Origin: Squalus acanthias
Lineage: Eukaryota
Assembly (NCBI GenBank): GCA_030390025.1
Contig: CM059431.1
Location: 99,140,001 to 99,204,000 of the forward strand
Length of the DNA stretch: 64,000 bases
Direction: 5' to 3'
Numbering within the stretch: the stretch's first letter is position 1; each line of letters starts with the position of its first letter. Under the pieces are notes generated by a model that was not told where the DNA came from, ran no database searches, and saw only the letters and a list, made by a program, of their open reading frames with translations. A program made the position numbers and the translations under genes. Below are positions 8,146-53,802 of the stretch, piece after piece.

Positions 8146-8505
8146 GGGGCAAGGAAACTGGGCGCAGTGTATCCGCCTTGCTTCTTCTAAATGGCTTCCT
8201 GGCAGCTCAACACAGCAGCAGTGGCAAAGGAGTTGTCCAGTCAGGTGGTTATATATCGCCCAGGGGCGATTCGGCCCATCGTGCCTGTGCCGGCTCTTTG
8301 AAAGAGCTCTCCAATTAGTCCCACTCCCCCCTGCTCTTTCCCCGTAGCCCTGCAAATTTCTCACTTCACATTTTAGTATTTATCTAATTCCCTTTTGAAA
8401 GTTACTATTGAATCTGCTTCCACCGCCCTTTCAGGCAGCGCATTCCAGATCACAACAACTCGCTGCGTAAAAAAATTCCCACCTGGATTTTTTGCCAAAT
8501 ACCTT

Positions 8506-9239
8506 GGGGTAAAAATTGAGTCGCGCCCCATTTGGGGCGCTAACCTCGCCGGGGCGCGACTTTTAGCGCCCCGAAAAAATTAGCGGCCCCGCGCCGGAAC
8601 TTCAGTGGTTGCGCCCCAAGAGGGAAGCGGGGCGCAACTGGAAGCAGCCCGCATCCCTCTTGGGGCGCTGCGAGTGTATATCCTGGCGCTACGTCGCGCC
8701 GCGGTATTGCAGGCCTTCCTCCCCTTCTTAAAGGGGAGGGACCCTGCGCAGCGCGAACCGGGGCCCAGCTGGGCCCCCAGGGATCGGGAGTGCCGGCAAA
8801 AGAGCCCGGCACTCAAGAGAAGTGCCGGGCTCTTGGAGCGCAGCCGGCACTTCACGGTGGGGGGGCTTCACGGGGGCCGGGGGCAGGTGCTGGCAGGCGG
8901 CCAGCAACAAAAATGGCCGCCTGCCACCTCCGCTTTAAATATCGCCGCCCCGGCCGCACGTACGCCTCCCTGAAACCGTCGGACATAGCGTCTGGCGGTA
9001 AATCAGGGGGCGCGACTGAAGATCACGGCCGGGGCGCGAGCGGGGTGCTGCGCACGGCGATGACGTCATCGCCGGCGGCGCAGCGCCACAGGGCGCTACC
9101 GGCTGCCGCCGCCGCTAACCTCCCACTAAATTTTTCGGGAGGCGTGGGCGGCGCTGCGCCCGGGCGTTAGCTGCTTTACGCCCCATTAGCGCCCTCTTAA
9201 GGCGCTAACGGGAGGCGCAAGCAGCTGAATTTTTCCCCC
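8506..9239 (+). mobile_element. Non-autonomous Harbinger MITE (type B)
   Basis: TIRs GGGGTAAAAATT / AATTTTTCCCCC, TSD CTT. The right end matches the autonomous element. Splits an antisense CR1 fragment. Confidence 0.9.
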
Positions 9240-10311
9240 CTTAAATCTGTGTCCTCTGGTTACTGACCCTCCTGCCAGTGGAAACAGTTTCTCCTTATTT
9301 ACTCTATCAAAACCTTTCATAATTTTGAACACCTCGATTAAATCTCCTCTCAACCTTCTCTGTCCTGAGGAGAACAATCCCAGCTTCTCCAGTCTCTCCA
9401 CATAACTGAAGTCCCTCATCCCTGGAACCATTCTGGTAAATCTCCTCCGCACCCTCGCCGAGGCCTGGATGTCCTTCTCGAAGTGCGGTGCCCAGAATTG
9501 GACACAATACTCCGGCTGAGGCCGAACCAGTGATTGATTTATAAAGGTTCAGCACAACTTCCTTGGTTTGTACTCTGTGCTTTAGTTAGAGGTTAGGTAT
9601 GACTCAGGGGCGAGATGAAAAATTGAGGTGAAAAGGGTGAGTGCCCATAACACAGGGTACTAACCCTCGAGAACTACCGTGGGGTGTGTCCGCTTCCAAT
9701 ACCTTTCTCGCTTTAGATTTAGAATATGCCAATTATGCAGCAAAAATACATCGAACTCAGTCTTGAAAATTTTCAATTGACCCCCAGCATCCACAGCCTA
9801 TTGGGTGGAGAGAGTTCCAGGTTTCCTGATTTCAATCCTTATGACCTAGCTCTAATTTTAAGATTATATTCCCTTGTTCTGGATATTGCCACCAGAGGAA
9901 ATAGTTCCTCAGTATCTATCCTATCGCAGCCCTTTATCATTTTAAACACCTCGATACAGAGAGAGGGTGAAAAATTTTGGGGCGCAACTATCGTCCGGGC
10001 GCAAAAATTAGCGCCTGGCGCTAATTATCGCCACTGACTGGAAACTTCACTTTTAACGCCCCGGGAGGTGATTGGAGCGCTAAATCAGGCGCTGCACACC
10101 TGTCTTAAGGCGCAAAGGCCGAGGAGTGAGGCGCTAACTCAGAGCGCGAGCGCAGCGCAGGTGCTGCCAGTTAGCGAGGGAACACAGACACACTGGCGCC
10201 GGCCAGTTCTTAAAGGGGGGGGGGGGCGATCTTGCTCCCCAGCCACACCCTGCTCATTGCAGCCTTGAATCTCGGCCTGGAGAGACCTGTGAATCCATTT
10301 TCCAGCCAAGG

Positions 10312-12251
10312 ATGGAGAGGGTGAGAGAACGAGCTGAGCGCTTCACCGAGCGGGCCTTGGATGCTCTGGTTGGCGCGGTGGAGCGCCGAAGACCAATACT
10401 GTACCCAGAGAGTGGCAGGAGGCCTTTGCCGCGCGACTACAGAAGAGTGTGGAGGGAGGTGGCTCAGCGCGTCTCCTCCAGGAGCATGGTGCCCAGGACC
10501 CATGTCCAATGCCGGAAAAAGTTCAACGACCTCACTCGGGTCGTCAGGGTGAGTGGCTTTTTTGCAATACCTCTCCATCCCTCCATCTCAACCTCACTCT
10601 ATGGCCAGAGGGTCTTAAAACCACAATTAACAACACTCATCCAACACCTATGGCCCTTTCATGAAGCACACACACACATTCCATACTTTGCATACAGTAA
10701 GGGCTATTCACCTATGGGAGGCACATCAGGCAAGACCATGGCTGTATACAGTAAGGGCTATTCACCTATGGGAGGCACATCAGGCAAGACCATGGCTGTA
10801 TATTTACTCAGACGCTGTCCTTTTTCTTGCAGGCCAAGCTGGCGCATAATAGGAGACAGCAGCAACGGACGGGTGGAGGGCGGCCTCAGCTGCAACCCCT
10901 CAGCGATCTTGAGGAGCGCGTCCACAGGATTGTGGCAAGCCGGGTGATCGGTCCCGTCGCCACTGGAGACGCCGACCCCGTTCTGGACAGCAATGGTAAG
11001 GTCATCACCTTTTTGTCCTCTGTCCTTCCACTTGTCCCTCACAACACCAGCCTTTGACACTTTCAATCCAACTTACTAACTCGCTGCACTTATTCCTCCC
11101 TTACTGCCACCCTGTCCTCACGCTAAAGCCAATCTTGTACCTCCCTGCTTTCAGATGGTGATTCACCAGCTGAGGAGACGGGCCCTGAAGCTGCCAGTGG
11201 GAGTGAAGCTGCAGCCGAGGAGGAAGAGGAAGCCGGAGCATCAGTGCCACCCTCTCCCGAGGAAGCCCATGCCGACACTGGGAACACGCCTTCCCTGGAG
11301 GGGAGCAGGGGGGAAGGGTCTGATGAGGGTGAAGCTCCAGGACCCAGCGGGCTGCAGCAATGCGATGGGGGTAGGGAAGCTCGGGGGCCTTCTCCCCGGA
11401 GGGAGAGTATGCCAGCGAGTCCTGCTGCAATGGACGCAGAGGAGGAGCGGCTGATCGCAGAAATGAACACCCAGGCGGTGGGCATGCACACTGAGCTCAT
11501 GGCTGCAGTGGGTAGGGTGCCCGAATGCATTGAAGCACTGGCAAGGAGTGTGGAGCACTTCGCTGCAGCGCAGGCGGATGCGACACTGAAGCTCAGTGCT
11601 GCAATTCAATCTCAGACTGCTCTCATGCAGACTCAGATTGAGGTCACGCGAGCACTGTCTGCTGCCATCCTCGCTGGTTCGTTCACATTTCCCCGGGGCT
11701 CTCACCGCGCCGCAGCAGGCCAGCAATCTGTGCTCCAGCAGATTGCTCCGGATGCTGAGGTGCTGCCCCGTGGGAGTGCCAGTGTGCCGGTCGAGCAGGG
11801 AGTTGCTGTCCTCGCTCAAGATGACAGCATTCCTGCTGCCACCACTGTCACTTCTCCACTGCAGTTGCCACCGCCTGTAGGACAGACTGCTGCCGCCCAT
11901 GCAGAGTTGGTGCAGTCTGCAGCCGGGCCCTCCAGGCCTAGAACTGGTCGAGGCCGTCCCTCAAGGGCATCTGCATTGTCAGGGCCTGACAGTCAGCAGC
12001 CTTCCACCAGCCTTGCTGCAGCCACTGAGGTCCCATTGCGGAGGAGCAGTAGGCTAAGAAGGGGGGAAGGGCGCACGGAAGGAGTTCACCCTCGATGTAG
12101 GAGGTTTGACAAAATGCTGGTCATTTTTTTATTAAAGGCCGAGGTTCGTGGTCAAACTTTTGTTGAGTGTTTTGCACATGATCTCCAGGTTGTGAGAACC
12201 AGTTATGGTAATGACTGTTTTTTTGTGTTTATTTGTATGAGTTTGTCATGA
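10312..12251 (+). CDS. Harbinger Myb/SANT-like DNA-binding protein, 3 exons (10312-10548, 10833-10995, 11155-12251), about 498 aa
   Basis: RFTERALDALV...VWREVAQRVS...RTHVQCRKKFNDL trihelix/Myb motif; GT-AG introns keep the frame; RTGGG motif in exon 2; acidic and coiled-coil-like exon 3. Confidence 0.85.
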
Positions 12252-12413
12252 AGAAATGACCCACACACAGAGTTTGTAAAATAAATAAGTTTTGGTACTC
12301 AAAATATACATGTTTGGTGTTTGGAATCATTGGTGCCTTGGCCGGCTTAGGGGTTGCGTGTTGGGTTCATTCATGCTGTTCTCAATGGCAGAAGCCATTT
12401 CCACAGCAGGGGC

Positions 12414-12512
12414 CTAGAAGCGGCTTGCTATCAGCCGCTGACGGACGGCCCTTGCAGTTTCACCATTGTGGGCCGCCCTCACGCCTTGGTGCTGCTGCTG
12501 ATCATCCTCCTC

Positions 12513-12543
<31 letters not shown>

Positions 12544-13556
12544 GGTGGTGCTCCAAGGCCTGGTGGCATTGGCTGGGTCCTGAGGATTGCCATGTTATGC
12601 AGCATGCAGCACACAACTACGATGTTGGAAACTCGCTCAGGCGAGTACTGCAGGGCTCCTCCAGAATGGTCGAGACAGCGGAACCGTTGCTTGAGCACGC
12701 CGATTGTGTGCTCCACGATGTTCCTGGTAGCTTGATGGCTCTCGTTGTACCGCAGCTCAGCAGGGGTGTTGGGCGTACGGAGCAGTGTCATCAGCCAGGT
12801 GCTCAGTGGATACCCCTTGTCCCCGAGAAGCCAACCAACTGGCTGATGCGGTGCCTCGAAAAGTTCTGCCACAGTAGTCTGGCGCAGGATGAAAGCATCG
12901 TGGCAGCTGCCAGGATAGTGGGCATTGACAGCGAGTATCAGCTGTCTGTGGTCACAGACCAACTGAACATTCAAGGAATGGAACCCCTTTCTGTTCCGGA
13001 AATCCTCGGCATTCTCATGCGGAGCACGCAAAGCCACATGCGTGCAGTCAATGGCGCCCGCTATCCTCGCAAAGCCCAGAGCGCGTTCTTGCTGCTTGTC
13101 TGGGGTCATGGGGAAAGAGATGAACTCTCGTCTCCTTTTAAAGAGGGCATTTGTGACGTGACGGATGCAGCAATGCACCGCGAACTGGGAGATATTGGCG
13201 ATGTCCCCAACAGCAGATTGAAATGAGCCAGTAGCATAAAAGTTCAGAGCCACTGTGACCTTCACTGCCACCGACAGAGACGTCCTGGACCTCAGGTGAG
13301 GCTGCAGATCTGGCTGCAGCAGGTGGCAGAGCTCAGTGACCACCTCCTTGCTGAAGCGTAGCCTTCGCAGACACTTCTCATCAGACATATGAATGTAGGA
13401 GAGCTGTTCACGATATACCCTGGGAGGGTAAGCTCTCCTGTACAGACGCCTGTTGGCCCTCCTCCGTCTGGCCATCATTGCCACTCTCTCTCTGCGTCTC
13501 TGTCTCCTCCGATTCAGCTGGCGCAGGACGACGCCCCCCATCAGTGCAGCCCCCAT
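12414..13556 (-). CDS. Harbinger DDE transposase (HARBI1-like family), 380 aa
   Basis: Motifs ALNFYATGSFQ, GAIDCTH, NRKGFHSLNVQLVCD, PGSCHDAFIL, LLGDKGY, RNIVEHTIGVLKQRFRCL, CCMLHN. ATG at 13556; no stops or frameshifts. Confidence 0.95.
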
Positions 13557-14915
13557 ATCTCTTAGCAAGCAAAGTTATGAAGGCCAGAAACCAAAGTACC
13601 AGCGAAGTTAGGATGAGTAGCCAAAACTACCTCACACAGCGTTGACTCAATGCAGAAGTCTCTCTTTCTCTCTCTCCGAATCTCTCTCTCTCTCTCAGAA
13701 CGAGTGGTGCAAAAATGTCAACCACAGAGAAAGACAGGAATAGCGCCCCCCCCAGCCCCACAGCGATTGTTAGCGTTCCACTCTTCCGGTCGTTGGATGC
13801 GTCAGGCGGTAAGGATGGGGGCGCCACTGAAATTCTGCTCCGGGGCGCCACAAGGGCGTTGCACTCTCGTATGACGTCACAATCTGCGCGAGCAGGAGAT
13901 CGCGGCGATAAAGTTTAGCGCCACCGCAAAATGTCTAGTTAAGTTCGCGAGCGGCGCAAACATCGCTACGCCCGGGCGCTAGCTGCTTTGCGCCCCATTA
14001 GCACCCTCTTAAGGCGCTAACGGGAGGCGCAACCAACTGAATTTTTCCCCCAGAGTGTTTCCACTTGTAGGGAAGAGCATAACTAGAGGCCATCAATATA
14101 AGATAGTCACCAAGAAATCCAATAGGGAATTCAGAAGAAACTTCTTTACCCAGAGAGTGGTGAGAATGTAGAACTCGCTACCACAGGGAGTGGTTGAAGC
14201 GAATAGTATAGATGCATTTAAGGGGAGGCTGGACAAACATATGAGGGAGAAGGGAATAGAGGGTTAGGCTGATAGATTTAGATGAGGAAAGACGGGAGGA
14301 GGCTGGAGTGGAGCATAAACACCAGCGTGGACTGGTTGGGCCGAATGGCCTGTTTCTGTGCCGTATATCCGATGTAATCCTATGTATGATTGGATTACCC
14401 CTCAATCGTCTAAACTCAGGGGAATACAAGCCAAGGGGGAGAAATTCGGTACCTTAGCACCTTCCGTTATGGCCTCCGGGGGCGATAACGGAGCGCTAAT
14501 GACTTACCGGCCGGGCGGTGTGAAATGAACGACTCCCGCTAACTTGGCCGAGAGGTTTGCGGCGGCGGTAACGCTTTGCGCCACAATCTCCAGCTGACTG
14601 GCCCCAATGCAGAGCTGGTGGCGATGGCCCTTCCCTCGGGTGGTGGCAGTGCTGCACGGGACCGCCTGCATCGCCCCGCCTGCGTCCTTTAGCGCTCCAG
14701 GAAGGAAGTGCAGCGTTTGATTTAGCGCTCCACTTCTTTCCTGGAGGTGCCGTCTTTCGGAGGAGACGTTAAACCGAGGCCCCGTCTGCTCTCTCAGGTG
14801 GACGTAAAAGATCCCATGGCACTATTTCGAAGAAGAGCAGGGGAGTTCTCCCCGGTGTCCAGGACAATATTTATCCCTCAACCAACATCACTAAAACAGA
14901 TTATCTGGTCATTAT

Positions 14916-17900
14916 GTATGCGGGATGGTTTCTTAGAGCAATACATTGAGGAACCAACCAGGGAGCAGGCTATTTTAGATCTGGTAATGTGTAATGAGAC
15001 AGGATTAATTAATGATCTCATAGTAAAGGATCCCCTAGGAAAGAGTGATCATAACATGGTAGAATTTCAAATTCAGTTTGAGGGTGAGAAACTTGGGTCT
15101 GAAACTAATGCCCTAAACTTAAATAAAGGCAATTACAAGGGTATGAGGACAGAGTTGGCTAAAGTGGACTGGGAAAATAGATTAAAGGGTAAGACGGTAG
15201 ATCAGCAGTGGCAGACATTTAAGGAGATATTTCATAAATCTCAGCAAAGGTGTATTCCAGTGAGAAAGAAAGGCTCTACGAGAAGGATGCACCATCCATG
15301 GCTAACTAAGGAAGTTAAGGATGGTATCAAATTGAAAGAAAAGGCATATAATGTTGCGAAGATTAGTGGGAGACCAGAGGATTGGGGAATTTTTAGAAAC
15401 CAGCAAAGGATGACTAAAAAATTATAAAGAGGGAGAAGATAGAGTATGAGAGTAAACTAGCAAATAATATAAAAACAGTCAGTAAGAGCTTCTACAGGTA
15501 TATAAAAAGGAAGAGAGTAGCTGAAGTAAACATTGGTCCCTTAGAGGATGAGACTGGGGAATTAAAGGCCTGTATTTTCTGATCCCTACGGGTGGGTACG
15601 CGCTGTGTACTCACCCGTAGGGACATCGGAAATGGCGGTTTCGGGCATGCACTGTGCATAAGCTGAAAACCGGCATTTTCGATCTGTCAAGAATGGTCTC
15701 GACAGATCGGACGCCTGCCCTGGAGAAGGGCCTCTGCGGGCGGATAGTTCCACTTTCTGGAGAACCTCCGCCTGCTGAAAACCCTTAGAATTCTTACGCC
15801 TGGTAAAAGCAGCGTAAGGCCTGCTTTTACCAGGATAAGAGTTGAAAAAAGTTTAAAAAAAATTCCACTCATTTATCATTTAAAAATACTTTAAAAAAAG
15901 GTAAGTTTAATTTTAGCCCCGTAAAAAACTTTAATTATTTTTTTCAAAAAATTAAATTTTTGTTTAAAATATTTAATTTATTGTAATTTCAACTAATTTT
16001 AAAAATGTGATTTTTAAAAAATGTATTTAATGTTTTAAAGTGTTTTTGGGGTGATCTCCATTCATATATTTGACAGGTCTATCTGTCAAGTGTATGAAGG
16101 GAGATTCCCTTCTCTGATTGGCTCCCCATGGCCCACGTGATCCCAGGGACGCTGCGAACCGCCTGCGCCTCTGGGATACGTGGGCCCTGCGCACTTGGAG
16201 TTGGAGAGGCCCAGCATCGGAACTATACGCACCTCGGGAGCCCTCAGGTAAGGGCGTAGATTTTTTCCAGATCGGAGGCCTCCGTACACGGGAAGCCTCC
16301 GATCGGAAAATAAGGCTCAATAATGGGGAATAGAGAAATGGCAGAGACTCTAAACAATTATTTTGGATCGGTCTTCATGGTAGAAGACACTAAAAACATC
16401 CCAATAATAATAGATAATCAAGGGGCTATAGGGAGGGAGGAACTTAAAACAATCTCTATCACTAGAGAAAAAGTACTAGACAAACTAATGGGGCTAAAGG
16501 CCGACAAGTCCCCTGGACCTGATGGCCTGCACCCTAGGGTCTTAAAAGAAGTGGCTGCAGAGATAGTGGATGCGTTGGTTGTAATCTACCAAAATTCCCC
16601 GGATTCTGGAGTGGTCCCAGCGGATTGGAAAACCGCAAATGTTTTGCCACTATTCAAGAAAGGAGGGAGACAGAAAGCAGGAAACTATAGGCCAGTTAGC
16701 CTAACATCTGTCATTGGGAAAATGCTGGAATCCATTATTAAGGAGGTAATAGCAGGACATTTAGAAAATCATAAGACAATCAAGCAGAGTCAACATGGTT
16801 TTATGAAAGGGAAATCGTGTTTGACAAATTTGCTAGAGTTCTTTGAGGATGTAACAAATAGGGTGGATAAAAGGGAACCAGTAGATGTAGTGTATTTGGA
16901 TTTCCAGAAGGCATTCGATAAGGTGCCACATAAAAGGTTACTGCACAAGATAAGAGCTCACGGGGTTGGGGGTAATATTTTGGCATGGATAGGGGATTGG
17001 CTAACTAACAGAAAACAGAGAGTCGGGATAAATGGGTCATTTTCCGGTTGCCAACCAGTAACTAGTGGGGTGCCACAGGGATCAGTGCTGGGGCCTCAAC
17101 TATTTTCAATCTATATTGATGACTTGGATGAAGGGACCGAGTGTATTGTAGCCAAATTTGCTGATGATACAAAGATAGGTGGGAAAGCAAGTTGTGAGGA
17201 GGACACAAAGAGTCTGCAAAGGGATATAGATAGGTTAAGTGAGTGGGCAAAAATTTGGCAGATGGAGTATAATGTGGGAAAATGTGAGGTTATCCACTGT
17301 GGAAGGAAGAATGAAAAAGCAAATTATTATTTAAATGGAGTTAGACCACAAAACTCTGCAGTACAAAGGAATCTGGGGGTCCTCGTACATGAAACACAAA
17401 GTTAGCATGCAGGTACAGCAAGTAATTAGGAAGGCTAATGGAATGTTGGCCTTTATTGCAAGGGGGATGGAGTATAAAAGTAGGGAAGTCCTGCTACAAC
17501 TTTACAGGGCGCTGGTGAGACTGCACCTGGAGTACTGCGTACAGTTTTGGTCTCCATATTTAAGGAAGGATATACTTGCATTGGAGGCAGTGCAGAGAAG
17601 GTTCACTAGGTTGATTCCTGGGATGAAGGGGTTGACGTATGATGAAAGGTTGAGCAGGTTGGGCCGATACTCTCTGGAGTTTAGAAGAATGAGAGGTGAT
17701 CTTATTGAAACATATAAGATTCTGAGGGGGATTGACAGGGTGGATGCTGAGAGGGTGTTTCCCCTAGTGGGGGTATCTAGAACTAGGGGGCATAGTTTCA
17801 GAATAAGGGTTTGCCATTTAAGACGGAGATGAGGAGGAATTTCTTCTGAGGGTCGTGAATCTTTGGAATTCTCTACCCCGGAGAGCTGTGGAGGCGGAGT

Positions 17901-18087
17901 CATTGAATATATTCAAAGCGGAGATTGACAGACATTTGAACGACAAGGGAGTCAAGGGTTATGGGGAGAGAGCGGGAAAGTGGTGTTGAGGCCAAGATTG
18001 GATCAGCCATGATCTTATTGAATGGCAGAGCAGGCTCGAGGGGCCGATTGGCCTACTCCTGCTCCTGTTTCTTATGTTCTTATGTTC
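14916..18087 (+). mobile_element. 5'-truncated CR1 LINE (ORF2 RT at 16323-17405), inserted into a SINE and interrupted by a MITE
   Basis: KSPGPDGLHPRVLKE, YRPVSLTS, YLDFQKAFDKVPH, SGVPQGSVLGP, KFADDTK; (ttcttatg)n tail. The SINE resumes at about 18092 after the shared TTAT. Confidence 0.92.
15567..16318. mobile_element. MITE (probably Harbinger-type) inside CR1
   Basis: Imperfect TIRs ggcctgtattttctgatc / gatcggaaaataaggctc and an AT-rich centre. CR1 sequence gggaatt|aataatgggg rejoins across it. Confidence 0.7.
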
Positions 18088-18517
18088 TTATCACATTGCT
18101 GTTTGTGGGAGCTTGCTGTGTGCAAATTAGCTGCCGCGTTTCCCAAATTACAACAGTGACTACACTTCAAAAAGTACTTCATTGGCTGTAAAGCGCTTTG
18201 AGATGTCTGGTGGTCGTGAAAGGCGCTGTAGAAATGCAAGTCTTTCTTTAACCTGTTCTCATATTTTAACCCTTTTAGCCCTGGTATCATTCTGGTGAAT
18301 CTCCATTGCCCCCCCTCCAAGGCCAGTATATCCTTCCTGAGGTGCGGGGCCCAGAACTGAACCCAGTTATTCCAGATGTGGTCTGAACAAGGCTCTGTAC
18401 AGCTGAAGCATCACTTCCTCACATGAAGGGGTGGTGGACTCAGAGGAAGAGAGTTCAGGGCTGGAGAAGGTTGCAGAAATAGGGAGGGATGAGATCTTGG
18501 AGGGTTTTAAACACAAG

Positions 18518-21095
18518 GGGGGAAAAGTTCAGTATCGCCCCGTTTGGGGAGCAATTATCGGCCGGGCGCAAAGATTAGCGCCTGGCGCTAATTATCGCCT
18601 CCGACTGCAAACTTGACTTTTATCGCTCCTGGAGGTGATTGGAGCGCTAAATCAGGCGCTACACACTGTAGAATTGGCAATATATCGCGATTTTATTAAT
18701 AAGGAGAAGAACACAGAGTTTCGTTCAAACAGCTTTTATTTCAGCAGAATGCTGTCAGGTTTTCAAAGTGGACACAAGCAGCTTGTAAAATGGCCGCCGC
18801 ACCTCGTGGCAGAACATTCTAGACTTTTCAACAGGCAGACAAGATGGCGTTCCAATAAACATTTGTGCAAGATCGATTAAGACTCAGCACATTTAAGATA
18901 ATACACGAGACATCATGGGTTTACAGTATACACATAAATACTGAAATCGGTCTCCCGGGTACGAATAAAAGCTATTGTACCAAGTAATCAAGAACCCATC
19001 CAAAGACATTAATATGTAAAATCCCAACGACTCTACGATGAGAGAGCCGTTAGCGGGTAGTTACAGAAAACACTTGGAAGCCCCAAAACCCCTCCAGGGA
19101 GAACACCGACCGATTAAACAATGGGAGAAATATTAACAGGTACTCAGACATTTACGAGTAGCCCCGAAACCCATTAAAACGAAGATCACCCTATACAAGA
19201 CATTTGAGCGCCAAACCCTAACAAAAAAAAAGACATTAAGGTTGGGCGGGAAACGGAAGATTTTGCACTATAATTGCAAGCTCCAAACCGTCCATCTTTC
19301 TCTTGACTCTTGACTCTTATTCGGTTGACTCTTATCCTCGTGGCTGCTCCTGTGCTCTTGACTCGCCGTCTTGTTCCTGCTTGCCTCGTGTCTCTTTTCA
19401 AAAGACTGTTGAACTTTACAATCCGCTCGAATCTACCTCGTGTCGTGTCGCGAAGACCTGTGTAGAACTGGGCTCTGAAGCCTTGAAGCGGGCGCACCAT
19501 CCCGATAAGTCGGTAAACGGTGTTGGAACCGAAGGCCCGAGATGAGATGAGATGAGATGAGATGAGATGAGAAGAGAAGAAGACAATACATCTCGTCACG
19601 GTCAGTAAGCCCCGACCGCGCTCGATAAATCGGTAACTGCTACCCAACTGGCAGGAAGACTATTCTTCGAATTTTATCGCATCAGTGCGAGGGCACAGGA
19701 AGACTCTTTTTTGAGTAGAGTCGGAACTCCGAGGACAACACAGATCTTCATGACAGCAGACGTTCCAGCCTGCTAGCCGGAGCAGAAACGAGTAAACAAG
19801 TGGGGCCAGGAGACCCCCTGATCGACACGTGGGCGCTGCGGTGAAAAACATCCGATCAGAGTTTTCGGAATTCTCCGAGTTATCACGAGTGGTGAGCATG
19901 AGTCTCGAATCCTACGAATCTAGCTTAGGACAGATATTGATAGGGGAGGGTTTTAAGTATTAAGGATAATTGTAATGTGTGCCCCCATTTACGATGTGTC
20001 GTTCGTTCCTCGTTTCCCCGAACTTAGTTACATAACTGCGTGTAAGATTGTACTGTCATTAATCTGTGCTTATGACATGTATTTCGTAATCTTAAGTACT
20101 ATGCAATAAAGATTTTCCATTTCGTACCATTCAACCGAGTCTACCTGAGTTTCATCTCCATTACTGCTCTCGCATCTAAGTCCAGTGTCTAGAACCGTAA
20201 GGGCGAGTGGGTCGAACCACTCACAGGGGTGTCTAGTGCTCCCAGACTGGCTGGAGACCAGAACAGGCAACAAGGCCTAAACCCGCACTAGCACCCGGGC
20301 TGCACAGAGCCACACGAATCTCACAGGCTGAGAGACAAAAACCCTTACAACACCTCTCTTAAGGTGCAAAGGCCGAGGAGCGAGGCGTTACCTCAGAGCG
20401 CTGGCGAAGCTCATGTGATGTCAGTCAGCAATGGAACACACACACAATGGCACCGGGCAGTTCTTAAAGGGGAGGGTTGATCTTGCTCTCCATCCACATC
20501 CTGCTCATTGCAGCCTTGAATCTCGGCCTGGAGAGACCTGTACATCAAATCTGCTGGAAAGAACAATGGAGAGGCCCAGGGAAAGAGCTCAGAGTGCAGC
20601 CCCCACAGTCTCTTCTAAATAGATGCAAGGAAGGGCAAATCAAAATGAACCTGCAAAGTGCTGCTCAGTACCCAAAACTCCTTCACACAGCGTTGAATGT
20701 CTCCAGAAGTCTCTCTCTCTCTCTCAGAATGCGTGGTGCAAAAATGTCACCAACAAAAAAAGGCAGGAAGCGTTCGCCTTTAAATAGCGCTCCCCCAGTC
20801 CCTTCTTGATTGCAAAACGCTCCCCTCAACCTGTCGTTGCTAGCGGCAGGCGGTAAGGCAGGGGGCGCCACTCAATATCCGCTCCGGGGCGCTACCGGGG
20901 CGTTGCGCACTCGACTGATGTCACGATCTGCCGGCGCAGGAGATCGTGGCGGTAGTGCTTAGCGCCACCGCAAAATGTCTAGTTAATTTCACGAGCGGCG
21001 CAAACATCGCCGCGCCCGGGAGCTAGTTGCTTTGCGCCCCATTAGCGCCCTCCTAAGGCGCTAACGGGAGGCGCAACCAATTGAATTTTTCCCCC
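18518..21095 (+). mobile_element. Non-autonomous Harbinger deletion derivative (type A), interrupted by an LTR-like insertion
   Basis: TIRs GGGGGAAAAGTT / AATTTTTCCCCC, TSD AAG. Retains both termini and the sequence up to the Myb ATG of the autonomous element. Confidence 0.9.
18667..20349. mobile_element. Solo-LTR-like element (1683 bp)
   Basis: TGTA...TACA termini and 4-bp TSD ACAC. The empty site gctacacacctctcttaagg is visible in the sister copy near 42120-42140. No convincing coding capacity. Confidence 0.75.
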
Positions 21096-21877: not shown

Positions 21878-23800
21878 TAGGAGGACACAAATAACCTCCC
21901 AGAGATGTCGGGGAACATAGGGTCTAATGAGAGGGAGGAATTGAATGAAATCAGTATTTGTAGGGAAATGGTGTTAGGGAAATTGATGGGATTGAAGGCC
22001 GATAAATCCCCAGGGCCTGATAATCTACATCCTAGGGTACTTAAGGAAGTGGTCCTAGAAATAGCAGATGCATTGCTGGTCATCTTCCAAAATTCTATAG
22101 ACTCTGGAACAGTTCCCATGGATTGGAGGGTAGCTAATGTAACCCCACGATTTAAAAAAGGTGGTAGAGAGAAAACGGGGAATTATAGACCGGTAAGCTT
22201 GACATCGATAGTGGGGAAAATGCTAGAGTCCATTATAAAAGATGTAATAGCAGAGCACTTGGAAAACAGTGACAGGATCGGACAAAGTCAGCATGGATTT
22301 ACAAAAGGTAAATCATGCTTGACTAATCTACTGGAATTTTTTGAGGATGTAACTGGTAGAATAGATAAGGGAGAACCAGAGGATGTGGTGTATTTGGACT
22401 TTCAGAAGGCTTTCGACAAGGTCCCGCATAAGAGATTAGCGTGCAAAGTTAAAGCACATGGGATTGGGGGTAAGGTACTGACTTGGATAGAAAACTGGTT
22501 GGCAGACAGGAAACAAAGAGTTGGAATAAATGGATCTTTTTCCAAGTGGCAGGCAGTGACTAGTGGGGTACCGCAGGGATCGGTGCTAGGACCCCAGCTA
22601 TTCACTATATATATTAATGATCTAGATGAGGGAACTAGATGTAATATCTCCAAGTTTGCAGATGACACAAAGCTGGGTGGGCGTGTGTGCTGTGAGGAGG
22701 ATGCAGAGAAACTCCAGTATGATTTGGACAGGTTGGGTGATTGGGCAGATGCATGGCAGATGCAGTATAATGTGGATAAATGCGAGGTTATCCACTTTGG
22801 TGGCAAAAACAGGAAGACAGATTATTATCTGAACAGCAATAGATTGGGAAAAGGGGAAGTGCAACGAGACCTGGGTGTCCTTGTGTACCAGTCGCTGAAG
22901 GTAAGCATGCAGGTGCAGCAGGCGGTTAAGAAGGCAAATGGTATGTTGAGAGAGAGGATTCGAGTACAGGAGCAAGGATGTCTTGCTGCAGTTGTACAGG
23001 GCCTTGGTGAGACCACACCTTGAGTATTGTGTGCAGTTTTGGTTGCCTTATCTGAGGAAGGATGTTCTTGCCATGGAGGGAGTGCAGCGAAGATTCACCA
23101 GACTGATACCTGGGATGGCAGGAATGACGTATGAAGAGAGATTGGGTCGATTAGAAACATAGAACATAGAAACATAGAAGCAGGAGTAGGCCATTCGGCC
23201 CGTCGAGCCTGCTCCACCATTCAATACGATCATGGCTGATCATTCAAATACAGTACCCTGTCCCTGCTTTAATCCCCACAGTACACAAATCCCACCCTAC
23301 CCCCGTAACCCCACGTATTTAATTCCCCCTAACATATCCCATCCTATCCCCATAACCCCACAGATTAGGCTTATATTCGCTCGAGTTTAGAAGAATGAAA
23401 GGGGATCTCATTGAAACTTATAAAATTCTAACAGGACTAGACAGACTAGATGCAGGAAGGATGTTCCCGATGGGGGGGGAGTCCAGAACCAGGGGTCACA
23501 GGATTCTAAGGATAAGGGGTAAGCCATTTAGGACTGAGATGAGGAGGAATTTCTTCACCCAGAGAGTGGTGAACCTGTGGAATTCTCTACCTCAGAAGGC
23601 AGTTGAGGCCAATTCATTAAATATATTCAAGAAGGAGTTAGATATATTTCTTAAGGCTAAAGGGATCAAGGGATATGGGGAGAAAGCAGGGACAGGGTAC
23701 TGAATTTGGATGATCAGCCATGATCTCATTGAATGGCGGAACAGGCTCGAGGGGCCAAATGGCCTACTCCTGCTCCTATCTTCTATGTTTCTATGTTTCT
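21878..23800 (+). mobile_element. 5'-truncated CR1 LINE (RT ORF 21905-23023)
   Basis: Same RT motifs; (ttctatgt)n tail. Confidence 0.92.
23155..23362 (-). mobile_element. Truncated SINE-like insert with a CR1 3' tail
   Basis: TSD GATTAG (23149-54, 23363-68); G-rich body plus a tail resembling 23685-23800. Confidence 0.7.
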
Positions 23801-28084: not shown

Positions 28085-29799
28085 AAACTTGCATTTATAT
28101 AGCGCCTTTCACAACCTCAGGATATTCCAAAGCGCTTTATAGCCAATTAAGTACTTTTGCAGCATAGTCACTGTTGAAACGCGGCAGCCAATTTGCGCAC
28201 AGCAAACTCCCACAAACAGCAATGTGATAATGACCTGATAATCTGTTGGTTGAGGGATAAATATTGGCCAGGACACCGGGGAGAATTCCCCTGCTCTTCA
28301 TCAAAATAGTAGCTGTGGGATCTTTTACGACCACTAGACAGGGCCTCAGTTTAGCTTCTCACCCAAAAGACGGCACCTCTGACAGCGCGGCACTCCCTCA
28401 GTACTGCCCCTCCGACAGTGCGGCGCTCCTTCAGTACTGCCCCTCTGACAGCGCGGCACTCCCTCAGTACTGCCCCTCTGACAGCGCGGCACTCCCTCAG
28501 TACTGCCCCTCCGACAGTGCGGCGCTCCTTCAGTACTGCCCCTCCGACAGTGCGGCGCTCCCTCAGTACTGCCCCTCCGACAGTGCAGCGCTCCCTCAGT
28601 ACTGCCCCTCCGACAGTGCGGCACTCCCTCAATACTGGCCCTCCGACAGTGCGGCGCTCCCTCAGTACTGCCCCTCCACAGTGCGGCGCTCCCTCAGTAC
28701 TGCCCCTCCGACAGTGCGGCGCTCTGTCAGTACTGCCCCTCCGACAGTGCAGTGCTCCCTCAGTACTGCCCCTCCGACAGTGCGGCACTCCCTCAGTACT
28801 GCCCCTCCAACAGTGCAGTGCTCCCTCAGTACTGCCCCTCCGACATTGCAGCGCTCCCTCAGTACTGCCCCTCCGACAGTGCAGCACTCCCTCAGTACTG
28901 CCCCTCCGAGAGTGCGGCACTCCCTCAGTACTGCCCCTCCGACAGTGCAGTGCTCCCTCAGTACTGCCCCTCCGACAGTGCAGTGCTCCCTCAGTACTGC
29001 CCCTCCGACAGTGCGGCACTCCCTCAGTACTGCCCCTCCGACAGTGCAGTGCTCCCTCAGTACTGCCCCTCCGACATTGCAGCACTCCCTCAGTACTGCC
29101 CCTCCGACAGTGCAGCACTCCCTCAGTACTGCCCCTCCGAGAGTGCGGCACTCCCTCAGTACTGCCCCTCCGACAGTGCAGCGCTCCCTCAGTACTGCCC
29201 CTCCGACAGTGAGGCGCTCCCTCAGTACTGCCCCTCCAACAGTGCAGCGCACCCTCAGTACTGCCCCTCCGACAATGCGGCACTCCCTCAGTACTGCCCC
29301 TCCGACAGTGAGGCGCTCCCTCAGTACTGCCCCTCCGACATTGCAGCGCTCCCTCAGTACTGCCCCTCCGACAGTGCAGCACTCCCTCAGTACTGCCCCT
29401 CCGAGAGTGCGGCACTCCCTCAGTACTGCCCCTCCGACAGTGCAGTGCTCCCTCAGTACTGCCCCTCCGACAGTGAGGCGCTCCCTCAGTACTGCCCCTC
29501 CAACAGTGCAGCGCACCCTCAGTACTGCCCCTCCGACAGTGCGGCGCTCCCTCAGTACTGCCCCTCCGACAGTGCGACGCTCCCTCAGTACTGCCCCTCC
29601 GATAGTGCGGCGCTCCCTCAGTACTGACCCTCCGACAGTGCGACGCTCCCTCAGTACTGCCCCTCCGACAGTGCAGCGCTCCCTCAGTACTGCACTGGGA
29701 GCATCAGCCTGGATTTCGGCCCAAGTCTCTGGGTCTATGAACCCACAACCTCCTGACTCAGAGGCGAGAGTGCCGCCCACTGAGCCACGGCTGACACCT
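28085..29799 (-). mobile_element. tRNA-headed Deu-type SINE with internal 33-bp tandem expansion (about 40 copies, 28374-29690)
   Basis: Minus-strand head ggtgtcagccgtggctcagtgg...gtgggttca (A/B-box-like), core ggaggtgccgtctt...aaactgaggcc, tail ataaatgcaagtt; unit cagtactgcccctccgacagtgcggcgctccct. Confidence 0.85.
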
Positions 29800-32055: not shown

Positions 32056-32322
32056 AGTGAATAACAGAAGTGGCTGTCAGCAGAATTCCTGTACTTGTGT
32101 AATATTAAAGGAACAGACCTTTGCTCCAAACGTCACAGCAATAATAAATGCATGAGAATTATTGCAGCGCGATGCAAAGTCTCAGCTCTCAAAACGAGTC
32201 GGACACATGTTAAACACGGCCCTTCATTGGACAGTGAGCTTTCTTTGACCTCCAAGGGGGGCTTTGGTGTGGAATAACAATAGACAAACTGGCTTTGATG
32301 TAATCTGGAGTTAAGAGTTGTT

Positions 32323-33083
32323 GGGGGAAAAATTCAGCTGCTTGCGCCTCCCGTTAGCGCCTTAAGAGGGCGCTAATGGGGCGTAAAGCAGCTAACGCCC
32401 GGGCGCAGCGCCGCCCACGCCTCCCGAAAAATTCAGCGGGAGGTTAGCGGCGGCGCCAGCCGGTAGCGCCCTGTGGCGCTGCGCCGCCGGCGATGACGTC
32501 ATCGCCGTGCGCAGCACCCCGCTCGCGCTCCAGCCGCGATCTTCAGTCGCGCCCCCTGATTTACCGCCAGACGCTATGTCTGACGGGTTCAGGGAGGCGT
32601 ACGTGCGGCCGGGGCGGCGATATTTAAAGGGGAGGTGGCAGGCGGCCATTTTTGTTGCTGGCCGCCTGCCAGCACCTGCCCCCGGCCCCCGTGAAGCCCC
32701 CCCACCGTGAAGTGCCGGCTGCGCTCCAAGAGCCCGGCACTTCTCTTGAGTGCCGGGCTCTTTTGCCGGCACTCCCGATCCCTGGGGGCCCAGCTGGGCC
32801 CCGGTTCGCGCTGCGCAGGGTCCCTCCCCTTTAAGAAGGGGAGGAAGGCCTGCAATACCGCGGCGCGACGTGCCGCAGCGCGTGGCGCTGCGGCACGTAG
32901 CGCCAGGATATTCACTCGCAGCGCCCCAAGAGGGATGCGGGGTGCTTCCAGTGGCGCCCCGCTTCCCTCTTGGGGCGCAACCACTGAAGTTCCGGCGCGG
33001 GGCCGCTAATTTTTTCGGGGCGCTAAAAGTCGCGCCCCGGCGAGGTTAGCGCCCCAAATGGGGCGCGACTCAATTTTTACCCC
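32323..33083 (-). mobile_element. Non-autonomous Harbinger MITE (type B), inverted near-identical copy of 8506-9239
   Basis: Same TIRs, TSD GTT. The ORF track shows near-identical spurious translations in both copies. Confidence 0.9.
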
Positions 33084-35489: not shown

Positions 35490-36248
35490 GCCCTCAGAAC
35501 GTCCCAAAGCGCTTTACAGCCAATGAAGAACCTTTTGAAGTGTAGTCACTGCTGTAATGTAGGAAACATGGCAGCCAATTTGTGCACAGCAAGCTCCCAC
35601 AAAAAACAACGAGATTAATGACCAGATAATTTGTTTTAGTGATGTTGGTTGATAAATGTTGGCCAGGACACTGGGGAGAACTCCCCCTGCTCTTCTTCGA
35701 AATAGTGACATGGGATCATTTACATCCACCCGAGAGAGCAGACGAGGCCTTGGTTTAACGTCTCATCCAAAAGACGGCACCTCCGACAGTGCAGCGCTCC
35801 CTCTGTACTGCCCCTCCCACAGTGCGGCGCTCCCTCAGTACTGCCCCTCCGACAGTGCGGCACTCCCTCAGTACTGCCCCTCCCACAGTGCGGCGCTCCC
35901 TCAGTACTGCCCCTCCGACAGTGCAGCACTCCCTCAGTACTGACCCTCTGACAGTGTGGCACTCCCTCAGTACTGACCCTCTGACAGTGCAGCGCTCCCT
36001 CAGTACTACCCCTCCGACAGTGCAGCGCTCCCTCAGTACTGCCCCTCCTACAGTGCAGCGCTCCCTCAGTACTGCCCCTCCAACAGTGCGGCGCTCCCTC
36101 AGTACTGACCCTCTGACAGTGCGGCGCTCCCTCAGTACTGCACTGGGAGTGTCAATGTAGATTTTTGCGCTCAAGTCTTTGGAGTGGGACTTGAACCCAC
36201 GACCTACTGACTCAGAGGCGAGAAGTGCTGCCCATTGAGCCACGGCCG
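35490..36248 (-). mobile_element. Same SINE family with about 11 copies of the 33-bp unit
   Basis: Same head, core and tail; array at about 35780-36140. Confidence 0.85.
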
Positions 36249-36301
36249 ATACTGTATGTCCAGCCTGCGATGTTAAATCAGGATCCCATCTGCCTTTCCA
36301 A

Positions 36302-38997: not shown

Positions 38998-40518
38998 GGG
39001 GTAGAGTTTCTGCTTCGGGCGCAATCGACAATCCGGGCGCAAATTGCGCTAGTTTCCCAAATGTTTTTTTTTTGCTCAAGTTTCTGCTCAAATGTATTTG
39101 CATAATCGCAAACTGAACCAGCGCAATCTTTAGAACGTTTTAGAACATTATCGTTTATTTTGCATTAACAATATTCCTTGATATATTTCAGCGTGGTAAC
39201 CTGGTGCAGTTTTATTAACACCGCTGAAAATGGGTTTATCACCAAAAATAAACATTATTAATCAGAGTGTCCAGTAACCCTATTTTAAATACCTGAAAAT
39301 GAATTTTAAAAACTTTACAGAGCCAGTTACTAGTTACATTGGTGTGCAGTAGTCAGTTTCTTAGTAAATTAAATATTTTGTAAGAATTAAAAGCATTTAA
39401 AAGGTGCCTATTAGTGCCCGTGTGCCTAAAAAAAAGCTAAATTTTAAGAGCGTCCACGAAGGCTCGCAAACGAGCACAATTAGCGGAAACTCGCCGCGGT
39501 GATTAATTCGATCTGGGGGCGGGGCCAGTTTTGTGGGCGGGGCCGGCTTCCACCGCAATGTTTATTAAACCAGCGCAAAATGGGCTGATAAGTGGCCGGA
39601 AACATTCGCGCCACACAAGTGCCAGGCAATGACTATCTCCAACAAGCGAGAGTCTAACCACCTCCCCTTGACATTCAACGGCATTACCATCGCCGAATCC
39701 CCCAGCATCAACATCCTGGGGGGTCACCATTGACCAGAAACTTAACTGGACCAGCCACATAAATACTGTGGCAACAAGATCAGGTCAGAGGCTGGGTATT
39801 CTGTGGCGAGTGTCTCACCTCCTGACTCCCCAAAGCCTTTCAACCATCTACAAGGCACAAGTCAGGAGTGTGATGGAATACTCTCCACTTGCCTGGATGA
39901 GTGCAGATCTAACAACACTCAAGAAGCTCGACACCATCCAGGACAAAGCAGCCCGCTTAATTGGCACCCCATCCACCACCTTAAACATTCACTCCCTCCA
40001 CCACCGGCGTACCGTGGCTGCAGTGTGTACCATCTACAAGATGCACTGCAGCAACTCGCCAAGGCTTCTTCAGCAGCACCTCCCAAACCCGCGACCTCTT
40101 CCACCTAGAAGGACGAGGGCAGCAGGCGCATGGGAACACCACCACCTCCAAGTTCCCCTCCAAGTCACACACCATCCTGACTTGGAAATATATCGGCCGA
40201 TCCTTCATCGTCGCTGGGTCAAAATCCTGGAACTCCCTCCCTAACAGCACTGTGGGAGTACCTTCACCACACGGACTGCAGCGGTTCAAGAAGGCGGCTC
40301 ACCACCACCTTCTCAAGGGCAATTAGGGATGGGCAATAAATGCTGGCCTTGCCAGCGACGCCCACATCCCATGAACGAATAAAAAAAAAATCGCAGAAAC
40401 TCGATTAATGCTGGGCGTAACTTGCGCTTAAAATTACGTGATCTTATGCGCTGGTTTGGCTGATTTTGAGAGCATTGGGCAGGGAAAACCAGCGCATAGC
40501 CGGCGGAAACTCCACCCC
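38998..40518. mobile_element. MITE with a nested LINE 3' fragment (about 39582-40390), just upstream of the first PDZK1 coding exon
   Basis: TIRs GGGGTAGAGTTTC / GAAACTCCACCCC (TSD not matching); nested ORF YKAQVRSVMEYSPLAWM with poly-A tail. Confidence 0.65.
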
Positions 40519-40618
40519 ATTGATTCTAATGGACGCATCTGTACATCAGAAACCAACCAATTCTAATGTGACCGGTGATTGTCACAGGTTTTATCCTTTT
40601 AGGTCATTCAAACGGCAA

Positions 40619-40831
40619 ATGATGGCCGCTCCAATTGAGCCTCGAGTTTGCAAACTATCCAAGAAGAAAGACGAGAACTTTGGTTTCTACTTGAGGATAG
40701 AGAAAGATACAGAAGGGCACCTGATCCGATGTGTGCTGAAGGGAGGTGTAGCTGACCAGGTTGGTCTGATAGACGGCGATCGAATCCTCAGAGTCAACAC
40801 AGTGTTTGTGGACAGCGAGGAGCACAAAGAG
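40619..40831 (+). CDS. PDZK1: PDZK1/NHERF3 coding exon 1 (start of PDZ1)
   Basis: Acceptor ttttag ends at 40602, ATG at 40619, donor gtaagg at 40832. [37 protein letters not shown]...GDRILRVN closely resembles the vertebrate PDZK1 N-terminus as recalled ([22 protein letters not shown]). Confidence 0.95.
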
Positions 40832-41144
40832 GTAAGGGCCGCACAAGCTAGAGTCTGACAACTGATCCCATAATAGTTCCTCCACCCCCCTCTACTGCAA
40901 CGGTGGTTATGGAAACCCTTTTTGGATTTCGTTGGGATCCCCACAATCAACGTTGCCTCTAATTTGTGGTCTAAATGCGCGATCCCTTTAAATTCGCTGC
41001 GTGGGACCTCCCGATTGGTGGGCCGCCACACGGCCACGCCCCTTAGGGGGTAATATTGCCCACAATAAGCCAGGGATAGGCACATTCTTTACTAGCCCCG
41101 AGAATGGAGGCGGACTTGTCTCCACAAAGTATTTATATGACTTT

Positions 41145-43510
41145 ATAAAAAGAGGCACAGAGTCCAAAAGCAAGGAAGTTATGCTAAACCTTTATAAATC
41201 ACTGGTTAGGCCCCAGCTGGAGTATTGTGTCCAATTCTGGGCACCGCACTTTAGGAAGGATGTCAAGGCTTTGGAGAGGGTGCAGAGGAGTTTTACCAGA
41301 ACGGTACCAGGGATGAGGGACTTCAGTTATGTGGAGAGACTGGAGAAGCTGGGGTCGTTCTCCTTAGAGCAGAGAAGGTTAGAACAGAGAAGCAGAGAAC
41401 ACAAAGGGGGGAAAATTTTGGTTGCTTTGCGCCTCCTGTTAGTGCCCTAAGAGGGCGCTAATGGGGCACAAAGCATCTAGCGTCCGGGCGCGGCGATGTT
41501 TGCAGCGCTCGCGAAATTGACCAAATATTTTGCGGCGGCACTAAACACTACCGCCACGATCTCCTGCGCCCGCAGATCGTGACGTCAGTCGAGTGCGCAA
41601 CGCCCCGGTAGCGGCCCGGACCAGATATTGAGTGGCGCCCCCTGCCTTACCGCCTGCCGCTAGCAATGACAGGTAGAGGGGAGCGTTTTGCAGTCGGCAA
41701 AGGACTGGGGAAGTGCTATTTAAAGGCGACTGCTTCCTGCGACATTTTTGAACCACGCATTCTGAGAGAGAGAGACTTCTGGAGAGATTCAATGCTGTGT
41801 GAAGGAGTTTTGGGTACTGAGCAGCACTTTGCAGGTTCATTTTGATTTGACCTTCCTTGCATCAATTTAGAAGAGACTGTGGGGGCTGCACTCTGAGCTC
41901 TTTCCCTGGGCCTCTCCATTGTTCTTTCCAGCAGATTTGATGTACAGGCCTCTCCAGGCCGAGATTCAAGGCTGCAATGAGCAAGGTGTGGATGGAGAGC
42001 AAGATCGACCCTCCCCTTTAAGAATTGGCCGGCGCCATTGTGTCTCTGTTCCATTGCTGACTGACATCACATGAGCTTCGCCAGCGTTCTGAGGTAGCGC
42101 CTCGCTCCTCGGCATTAGCGCCTTAAGAGAGGTGTGTAGCGCCTGATTTAGTGCTCCAAACACCTCCAGGGGCGATAGAAGCCAAGTTTGCAGTCGGAGG
42201 TGATAATTAGCGTCAGGCGCTAAACTTTGCGCCCAGCCGATAATTGCGCCCCAAACGGGGCGATACCAAATTTCTCCCCCAAAGAGTCTGCAAAGGGATA
42301 TAGATAGACTAAGTGAGTGGGCAGTAAGGTGGCAGATGGAGTATAATGTAGGGAAATGTGAGGTTATTCACTTTGGTAGGAAGAATAGAAAAACAGAATA
42401 TTTTTTAAATGGTGAGAAACTTTCAAATGTTGGTGTTCAGAGTGATTTGGGTGTCCTCGTGCAAGAAACCCAGAAAGCTAGCATGCAGGTACAGCAAGCA
42501 ATAAGGAAGGCAAATGGCATGTTGGCCTTTATTGCAAGGGGTTGGAGTATAAGAGTAAGGAAGTCTCGCTACAATTGTACAAGGCCTTGGTGAGACCACA
42601 CCTGGAGTACTGTGCACAGTTTTGGTCTCCTTATCGAAGGAAGGATTTACTTGCCTTGGAGGCGGTGCAACAAAGGTTCACTAGATTGATTCCTGGGATG
42701 AGAGGGCTGTCCTATGATGAGAGATTGTGTAGAATGGGCCTATACTCTCTGGAGTTTAGAAGAATGAGAGGTGATCTCATTGAAACATACAAGATTCTGA
42801 AGGGGATTGACAGGATAGATGCTGAGAGGTTGTTTCCCCTGGCTGGAGTGTCTAGAACTAGGGAGCATAGTCTCAGGATAAGGGGTCGGTCATTTAAGAC
42901 TGAGATGAGGAGGAATTTCTTCACTCAGAGGGTTGTGAATCTTTGGAATTCTCTACCCCAGAGGGCTGTGAATGCTGAGTCATTGAGCATATTCAAGGCT
43001 GAGCTAGATAGATTTTTGGACTCATGGGGAATCAAGGGATATGGAGATCGGGTGGGATAGTGGAGTTGAGGTCGATGATCAGCCGTGATCTTATTGAATG
43101 GCGGAGCTGGCTCAAGGAGCCGTATGGCCGACTCCTGCTCCTATTCCTTGTGTTCTTATGTTAGGGGAGATTTAATAGAGGCGTTCAAAATTATGAAAGG
43201 TTTTGATAGAGTAAGTAAAGAGAAACTGTTTCCAGTGGCAGGAGGGTCGGTAACCAGAGGACACAGATTTAAGATAATTGGCAAAAGAACCAGAGGGGAG
43301 ATGAGGAGAATTTTTTTATGCAGCGAATTGTTATGATCTGGAATGCGCTGCCTGAAAGGGCGGTGGAAGCAGATTCAATAGTAACTTTCAAAAGAGAATT
43401 GGTTAAATACTTGAAAAGGAAAAATTTGCAGTGCTCTGGAGAAAGAGCAGGGGGGAGTGGGACTAATTGGAGAGCTCTTTCAAAGAGCCGGCACAGGCAC
43501 GATGGGCCAA
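41145..43510 (+). mobile_element. Nested CR1 fragments in a PDZK1 intron
   Basis: RPQLEYCVQFWAPHFRKD; RPHLEYCAQFWSPY; RRNFFTQRVVNLWNSLP. Confidence 0.85.
41406..42280 (-). mobile_element. Non-autonomous Harbinger derivative (type A), uninterrupted copy in a PDZK1 intron
   Basis: TIRs, TSD AAA. The reverse complement matches 18518-18666 plus 20354-21095. Splits CR1 sequence gagaacacaaa|gagtctgcaaaggg. Confidence 0.9.
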
Positions 43511-53690: not shown

Positions 53691-53802
53691 GTGTGGCACT
53701 GACCCCTGGGTAAATGCACTGGACAGTGTGGCACTGACCCCTGGGTAAATGCACTGGACAGTGTGGCGCTGACCCCTGGGTAAATGCACTGGACAGTGTG
53801 GT

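Follow-up and report, generated by a model that had tools for sequence, protein, structure and literature searches.

A stretch of 64,000 bp from the Squalus acanthias genome (GenBank assembly GCA_030390025.1, contig CM059431.1, positions 99,140,001 to 99,204,000 of the forward strand), called the window below and numbered from its first letter, carries five transposable elements of one PIF/Harbinger family, and here we describe these elements and the target sequence that surrounds them and their relatives in the genome. An earlier note made from the letters alone (the original prediction) had listed five copies with GGGG(G/T)AAAAATT termini, and the same five were recovered by a terminus scan with GGGGKAAAAATT, in which up to 1 mismatch was allowed. 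The scan gave 12 matches in the window compared with 0.90 expected, a number reached in 0 of 100 shuffles. Ten of the 12 termini pair into the five elements (Table 1), of which elements 4 and 5 have the opposite orientation to elements 1–3. No further fragment of the family was found in the window at E<=1e-6, so the five elements are not cherry-picked.

All five are flanked by perfect 3-bp target site duplications (TSDs). Their terminal inverted repeats (TIRs) read GGGG(G/T)AAAAATT(C/G)AG, with 12–15 bases matching between both ends of an element; behind the TIR the two ends of each element differ, and they were named A and B. Element 5 derives from the autonomous element 2 by an internal deletion (positions 12–374 and 3579–4087 of element 2 match positions 26–388 and 389–874 of element 5), and element 3 consists of element-5-like ends flanking a 1.68-kb internal segment of its own. 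Between elements 1 and 4 the identity is 94.9%, and these two have only the B end and the TIR in common with the others. The subterminal 7-mer TAGCGCC occurs in 5–7 copies per element, clustered near both ends, and these copies are plausibly binding sites of a Myb-like protein.

Table 1. Features of the window and of the sampled loci, in window coordinates unless a locus is named; empty sites were reconstructed by reading the flanks. MITE, for miniature inverted-repeat transposable element; LINE, long interspersed nuclear element; RT, reverse transcriptase; ORF, open reading frame
Feature	Position	Strand	Description	TSD	Empty site
Element 1	8506..9239	+	734-bp non-autonomous Harbinger (MITE), within LINE-derived repeat	CTT	CCAAATAC-CTT-AAATCTGT
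Element 2	9965..14051	+	autonomous copy, 4087 bp	AGA	ATACAGAG-AGA-GTGTTTCC
Element 3	18518..21095	+	2578-bp non-autonomous copy	AAG	TTAAACAC-AAG-GAGAATAA
Element 4	32323..33083	-	inverted MITE, 761 bp	GTT	TAAGAGTT-GTT-GTGTTTAT
Element 5	41406..42280	-	inverted MITE, 875 bp	AAA	GAGAACAC-AAA-GAGTCTGC
Transposase ORF of element 2	12414..13574	-	386 aa stop to stop, DDE_Tnp_4		
Second Harbinger gene, first exon-like ORF	10138..10947	+	Myb/SANT-like DNA-binding domain		
Unpaired terminus	14435-14700	+	GGGGGAGAAATTCGG..., GC-rich subterminal sequence		
First LINE, RT ORF	16314..17402	+	RVT_1, E=1e-33; LINE about 14.5-18.1 kb; host repeat type of the region		
First LINE, 3' tail	18069-18091		(TTCTTATG)n octamer repeat		
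Second LINE, RT ORF	21881..23020	+	RVT_1, E=2.2e-33; LINE about 21.4-23.8 kb		
Second LINE, 3' tail	23781-23801		(TTCTATGT)n octamer repeat		
Occupants of one LINE RT-region site	window 41406-42280; L005 648-1540; L010 2967; L011 1540				
PDZ-domain open frame	40442-40855	+	E=8e-7		
PDZ-domain open frame	51147-51554	+	E=1e-7		
Satellite arrays	909-2489; 28376-29693; 35780-36141; 53210-53682; 53680-53801; 54470-55114		40/84-bp array of about 1.6 kb; 33-bp unit in three arrays; 35-bp unit in two arrays		

Coding capacity and family size

The transposase ORF of element 2 matches PF13359 over profile positions 1–158 of 158 (E=4.2e-41, Pfam). On the opposite strand, the first exon-like ORF of a second gene matches PF13873 Myb_DNA-bind_5 in residues 65–137 (E=8.3e-9); the structure of that gene is resolved as far as this frame. 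Together, the two frames make up the two-gene layout of PIF/Harbinger elements. Other traits of the superfamily found here are the 3-bp TSD, the short TIRs, a target preference beyond the TSD and Tourist-like non-autonomous derivatives, whose mobilisation in trans is putative. Pfam was run on 45 of the 66 window ORFs of at least 130 aa, the omitted 21 being within the five elements or in overlapping satellite frames.

The closest database relatives of the transposase are “putative nuclease HARBI1” proteins of sharks and rays, and the best of them has the same Pfam domains and is 65% identical (E=4e-154), with 89% of the query covered. These labels are automatic annotation. True HARBI1 is a domesticated single-copy gene, whereas the ORF described here lies between TIRs and has at least 107 copies; the annotated shark and ray proteins are at most 65% identical to it, so none of them belongs to this family. 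The best 120 relatives of the transposase include no protein from zebrafish.

The genome measures 3.71 Gb. With no more than 1 mismatch, a subterminal 21-mer is matched 41,704 times in it; an 18-mer of the B terminus has 27,930 matches and a degenerate 20-mer of the A terminus has 40,934. The copy number of the family is above 40,000. At least 107 scored genomic copies of the transposase (from 124,220 first-look candidates) are 96–100% identical, 91 of the 107 are free of internal stops, and in most the open frame is 392 aa long, compared with 386 aa in the window copy. From these sequences the family looks very young and is possibly still mobile.

Window positions 7900–14600, 72% of which are Harbinger sequence, were also used as a query against public sequencing runs. 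In the runs of 11 further coded organisms (B–L), 24–55% of the sampled 31-mers were present, and near-identical copies are therefore present outside the source organism, either in related species or by horizontal spread. Four public runs gave only short repeat-derived contigs of about 100–180 letters for this region. The joints listed across element 1 in these runs differ in 23–40 other letters and come from paralogous copies of the host repeat, so that they give no orthologous empty site or insertion polymorphism.

Some details of the single copies were also recorded. The left end of element 2 (9965–10000) reads GGGT instead of GGGG and is without about 14 nt that follow the TIR in elements 3 and 5, and a perfect 54-bp tandem duplication (2.1 copies) lies in the same element at 10692–10802. 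The internal segment of element 3 (18667–20350) is unrelated to the autonomous element and is itself repeated, with at least 40 scored genomic copies at 94–99% identity (of 4,387 first-look candidates), some of which are split at about positions 926–1022; the one ORF examined in it has no Pfam match. A weak sixth terminus at 14435 is unpaired. Its partner end was sought and not found, and it has no good half-site (the target motif described below). Possibly it belongs to a related family, as an old or truncated copy.

Target sequence around the insertions

Flanks were collected from 70 sampled loci (about 72 of 100 listed places), which had been chosen by the exact 21-mer of young copies. Ends were located by BLAST with the ten ends of the window (228 raw hits, giving 153 ends), and removal of flanks within 3 mismatches in 20 left 119 unique ends outside the window and 128 in all. 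Flank positions are numbered outward, with -1 adjoining the terminus, and all whole-genome statements rest on pattern counts.

The logo of the 119 non-window ends reads T (52%), W, A (63%), R (83%), A (82%), S (64%), W (82%) and C (63%) at positions -11 to -4, followed by A/T-rich positions -3 to -1, and it contains no information beyond -12. The logos of the A end (n=56) and the B end (n=63) are identical, which means that the target is palindromic and that insertion follows no orientation rule. The full target is TWARASWC-WWW-GWSTYTWA, which is looser than the AAACAC-NNN-GTGTTT of the original prediction. The symmetry is also seen in 46 unique non-window empty sites, where the A reaches 91% on the left and its mirror T 78% on the right. 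The centre, which had been called relaxed, is not free but 90% A/T in these sites, the commonest TSDs being ATA, TTA and TAT. By a hand sum of the logo, the total selectivity is roughly 8 bits; this is modest, and a 15-bp preference retained as a strict site does not hold.

The preference is bound to its position. ARASWC is found at -9 to -4 in 21 of the 119 ends, compared with a background of 0.22%, while shifts of 1–8 bp give 0–1 of 119. For 6-mers with no more than 1 mismatch to AAACAC, the numbers are 17 of 119 against a background of 0.49%, again with 0–1 of 119 at shifts of 1–8 bp.

Many termini are directly adjoined by AGAGTCATA, and it could be asked whether the boundaries are mis-set, such that the conserved flank bases are the true element ends and the real duplication lies further out. 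Of 65 paired elements, however, 56 have an identical TSD of exactly 3 bp; outside the window the count is 51 of 60. The flank 6-mers also vary, with eight spellings in the first 100 ARASWC rows. Paralogous empty sites also join without a gap at the boundaries given here: for element 1, a LINE-derived repeat of about 580 bp has 21 uninterrupted paralogous copies to which the empty site can be aligned with no gap, and the empty site of element 3 aligns to 3 paralogous repeats. The chance that the boundaries are wrong is practically negligible.

The flanks of the window elements agree letter for letter with the empty sites quoted in the original prediction (AAATAC-CTT-AAATCT, ACAGAG-AGA-GTGTTT, AAACAC-AAG-GAGAAT, AGAGTT-GTT-GTGTTT and GAACAC-AAA-GAGTCT). 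When the ten half-sites were scored on a matrix built without the window, their background percentiles were 97.7, 95.8, 90.6, 98.7, 100, 95.4, 99.9, 99.9, 98.7 and 98.7, so that nine of ten are above the 95th percentile, and both half-sites of element 4 are at 99.9. One half-site per insertion had been read as the signal, but the other halves score well too. By background, 0.49% of positions start a 6-mer with at most one mismatch to AAACAC, or about 1% per two-sided site, and the chance that five of five sites contain one is about 9e-11, with the caveat that only 16 of the 46 unique genomic sites contain such a 6-mer, so that five of five is high even for this family (0.35^5 = 0.005). The TSDs in the window are less A/T-rich than is usual for the family.

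A genome-wide flank check for AAACAC enrichment had been named beforehand as the test on which the prediction would stand or fall, and the enrichment was found. At -9 to -4 of the B termini, AAACAC is present in 682 of 27,930 (2.4%), compared with a local background of 0.030% (about 80-fold), and ARASWC in 5,219 of 27,930 (18.7%), compared with 0.22% (about 85-fold). Shifted 2 bp outward, ARASWC falls to 141 of 27,930 (0.5%), and many of these 141 cases overlap a correctly placed motif. The A termini replicate the result, with ARASWC in 7,340 of 40,934 (17.9%). In the first 100 ARASWC rows, which were read by eye, the half-site is spelled AGAGTC in 34, AGACAC in 19, AAACAC in 11, AGAGAC in 10, AAAGTC in 9, AAAGAC in 7, AGACTC in 6 and AAACTC in 4. 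The half-site can thus be spelled AAACAC, but this is a minor variant, and AGAGTC and AGACAC are commoner. From the above, the sequence-selective choice of target is borne out as a position-specific palindromic preference outside the 3-bp duplication.

Host repeats and neighbouring features

The window contains two LINEs, each with an RVT_1 ORF and an octamer 3' tail, and the second LINE is 71–75% identical to the first. Octamer tails are a mark of CR1; the host LINEs here are recognised only by RVT_1 and these tails, and the CR1 label is putative. At least three of the five copies had been placed inside CR1 sequence. By homology, elements 1 and 5 do lie within LINE-derived sequence, while elements 2, 3 and 4 are borderline, at 50–100 bp from LINE-homologous segments.

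The right flank of element 5 is 83% identical to window positions 17199–17608, the RT region of the first LINE. This LINE site, ...GAGGACAT-AAA-GAGTCTGCAAAGGG..., is occupied in at least 4 separate LINE copies and in both orientations (Table 1). For example, the element in locus L005 is opposite in orientation to element 5 at the same LINE position. The hits on the shared site are independent insertions.

A second host context is the 3' tail of another LINE family. By eye, 6 of the 46 unique sites were read as lying in its sequence ...TATAACTC TATGACTC TAT..., and in locus L057 (722–1614) a single LINE 3' tail holds two elements at a distance of one octamer, the second terminus following 8 bp plus the TSD later. 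In the whole genome, the context AGAGTC-ATA adjoins 1,224 of the 27,930 B termini (4.4%). It is the commonest context because the GASTC core recurs at intervals of 8 bp, so that both half-sites are on offer with a 3-bp centre between them. A test for period 8 in the outer 24 nt of the flanks was positive in 1 of 119 ends, and it is a poor detector, since an insertion splits the tail array.

With such recurring contexts, the motif might come from a few host repeat families that were copied along with their elements, and not from reading by the transposase. All five window sites are in or within about 100 bp of repeats, identical flanks recur among the sampled loci (L042–L045 are one duplicated locus, likewise L018 and L020), and the LINE-tail context makes up the share of B ends and of unique sites given above. 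On the other hand, the logo was made after near-identical flanks had been removed, it is flat beyond -12, unlike a shared repeat, and the contexts of most of the 46 unique sites are unrelated to each other. Moreover, the same host sites hold different subfamilies, and elements of both orientations, and the 21 paralogous copies of the host repeat of element 1 are empty at the site. We therefore regard an artefact of host repeats as very unlikely.

Besides the LINEs, several satellite arrays lie in the window, together with two PDZ-domain open frames, which are probably exons of a host gene. Element 5 is located about 550 bp downstream of the first of these frames.

Target selection and comparison with known systems

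We consider it highly probable that the five elements are independent insertions of one young and very abundant PIF/Harbinger family, one of them autonomous with two genes and four non-autonomous, whose transposition complex prefers a loose palindrome. In the mechanism that we propose, the DDE_Tnp_4 transposase would be recruited to the element ends by its Myb-like partner, and the target would be cut with a 3-bp stagger, preferably at 5'-TWARASWC-WWW-GWSTYTWA-3'. The two-fold symmetry, together with the identical logos at two different ends, suggests two identical protomers, each of which may read one half-site at 4–11 bp from the centre. We infer that the preference acts at integration, and any assignment of target reading to one of the proteins would be provisional in the same way.

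Several points weigh against this explanation. The motif is loose: only 18–19% of ends match ARASWC, it stands on both sides at 0 of the 46 unique sites, and 32% of the sampled ends have scores under the 95th percentile of the background. A single recurring context, AGAGTC-ATA, contributes part of the signal and is the LINE 3' tail in the sampled loci; these loci all lie within the first 12 Mb of one contig and were selected by the 21-mer of young copies. The half-site scores of the two sides show a weak negative correlation that is not significant (r=-0.24, p=0.11, n=46), so that a simple model with two independent protomers is a possibility which these scores neither favour nor oppose. A search for a solved structure of a relative, against which the protomer model could be checked, gave 0 matches. 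Finally, the study is limited to fixed genomic copies, in which a bias of retention or excision is inseparable from a preference of integration.

The last point leads to the alternative that integration is specific for the A/T triplet only, and that the palindrome arose through loss of copies elsewhere, by precise excision or by selection. Excision is usually precise (PMC2836001), so such loss would be traceless. Nevertheless, the same half-site is found in de novo integrations of the zebrafish element Harbinger3_DR according to a review (PMC3016246), the copies are young (exact 21-mer; transposases 96–100% identical), which leaves little time for filtering, and the signal is sharply positional. 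We consider a pure retention bias very improbable. The flat outer logo, the shift controls and the paralogous empty sites, taken as a whole, are explained by none of the three alternatives. A preference of the transposition complex itself is thus the explanation that we keep.

Extended target preference is already known for the superfamily, and no new kind of mechanism is involved. What is added is the quantified target logo, a likely active natural family and the nesting in LINE tails. The logo quantifies target choice in a natural vertebrate Harbinger family that was probably active recently, in a lineage with sharks and rays as its closest named relatives, and it shows that the half-site is not confined to the one zebrafish element, a reconstructed one, from which it was known. 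It can also help to set element boundaries and to spot nested insertions in the annotation of a 3.7-Gb genome. Which Harbinger protein reads the target is described as open for the superfamily in PMC2836001, where end binding is reported for the zebrafish element, and the natural proteins found here make the question testable.

A bolder reading, which is possible but which we ourselves hold to be doubtful, can be put forward from the sequences: this would be a naturally active vertebrate Harbinger, with at least 91 stop-free transposase ORFs at 96–100% identity and over 40,000 non-autonomous copies, that shares its half-site with Harbinger3_DR, has changed its centre from CWG to WWW and nests preferentially in LINE tails. 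If so, half-site recognition and centre choice would be separable modules of the PIF/Harbinger transposition complex, and the 8-bp-period LINE 3' tails ((ACTCTATG)n) would be a built-in “safe haven” for insertion, because a GASTC core every 8 bp offers both half-sites at once.

In the literature searched (main texts), nothing on point was found about Harbinger targeting of CR1 or LINE tails, or about Harbinger MITEs of sharks. A 2022 survey (PMC9179366) reports no Harbinger in the elephant shark, its one cartilaginous fish, and calls for more species.

According to PMC2836001, a preference beyond the TSD exists in all characterised PIF/Harbinger elements, with a span of 9 bp for plants and 15 bp for vertebrates. 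The Harbingers of barley are reported to prefer no more than TAA (PMC5738225). Maize PIF/mPIF and rice Ping/Pong/mPing resemble the family described here in their A/T-rich 3-bp duplication and in having MITEs of a two-gene element (PMC2836001). The plant preference consists of the TSD and 3 bp on each side, the positions that here read S-W-C and G-W-S (PMC2836001). Target reading is thus probably an old property of the superfamily, because the inner S W C occupy the positions of the plant 9-bp preference. A full-text search for the 9-bp consensus of maize gave 0 papers. In contrast with the plant elements, the family described here has a preference that extends over 8 bp on either side.

The nearest parallel in vertebrates is the reconstructed zebrafish Harbinger3_DR, which likewise has a Myb-like protein besides its transposase, a 3-bp duplication and a palindromic extended target. 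It integrates into the palindromic AAACACCWGGTCTTT, called “highly specialized” in PMC3016246, and the consensus quoted in the original prediction agrees with this source. Both halves of its target, AAACAC-CWG-GTCTTT, fit the degenerate half-sites ARASWC and GWSTYT of the present family. The centre differs, however, being WWW (90% A/T) instead of CWG, which occurs at 0 of the 46 unique sites. The half-site is also degenerate and much less strict here, with G preferred at -8, and a weak preference extends two bases further out (T W at -11 and -10). Finally, whereas Harbinger3_DR had to be reconstructed, the shark family exists as natural, near-identical copies.

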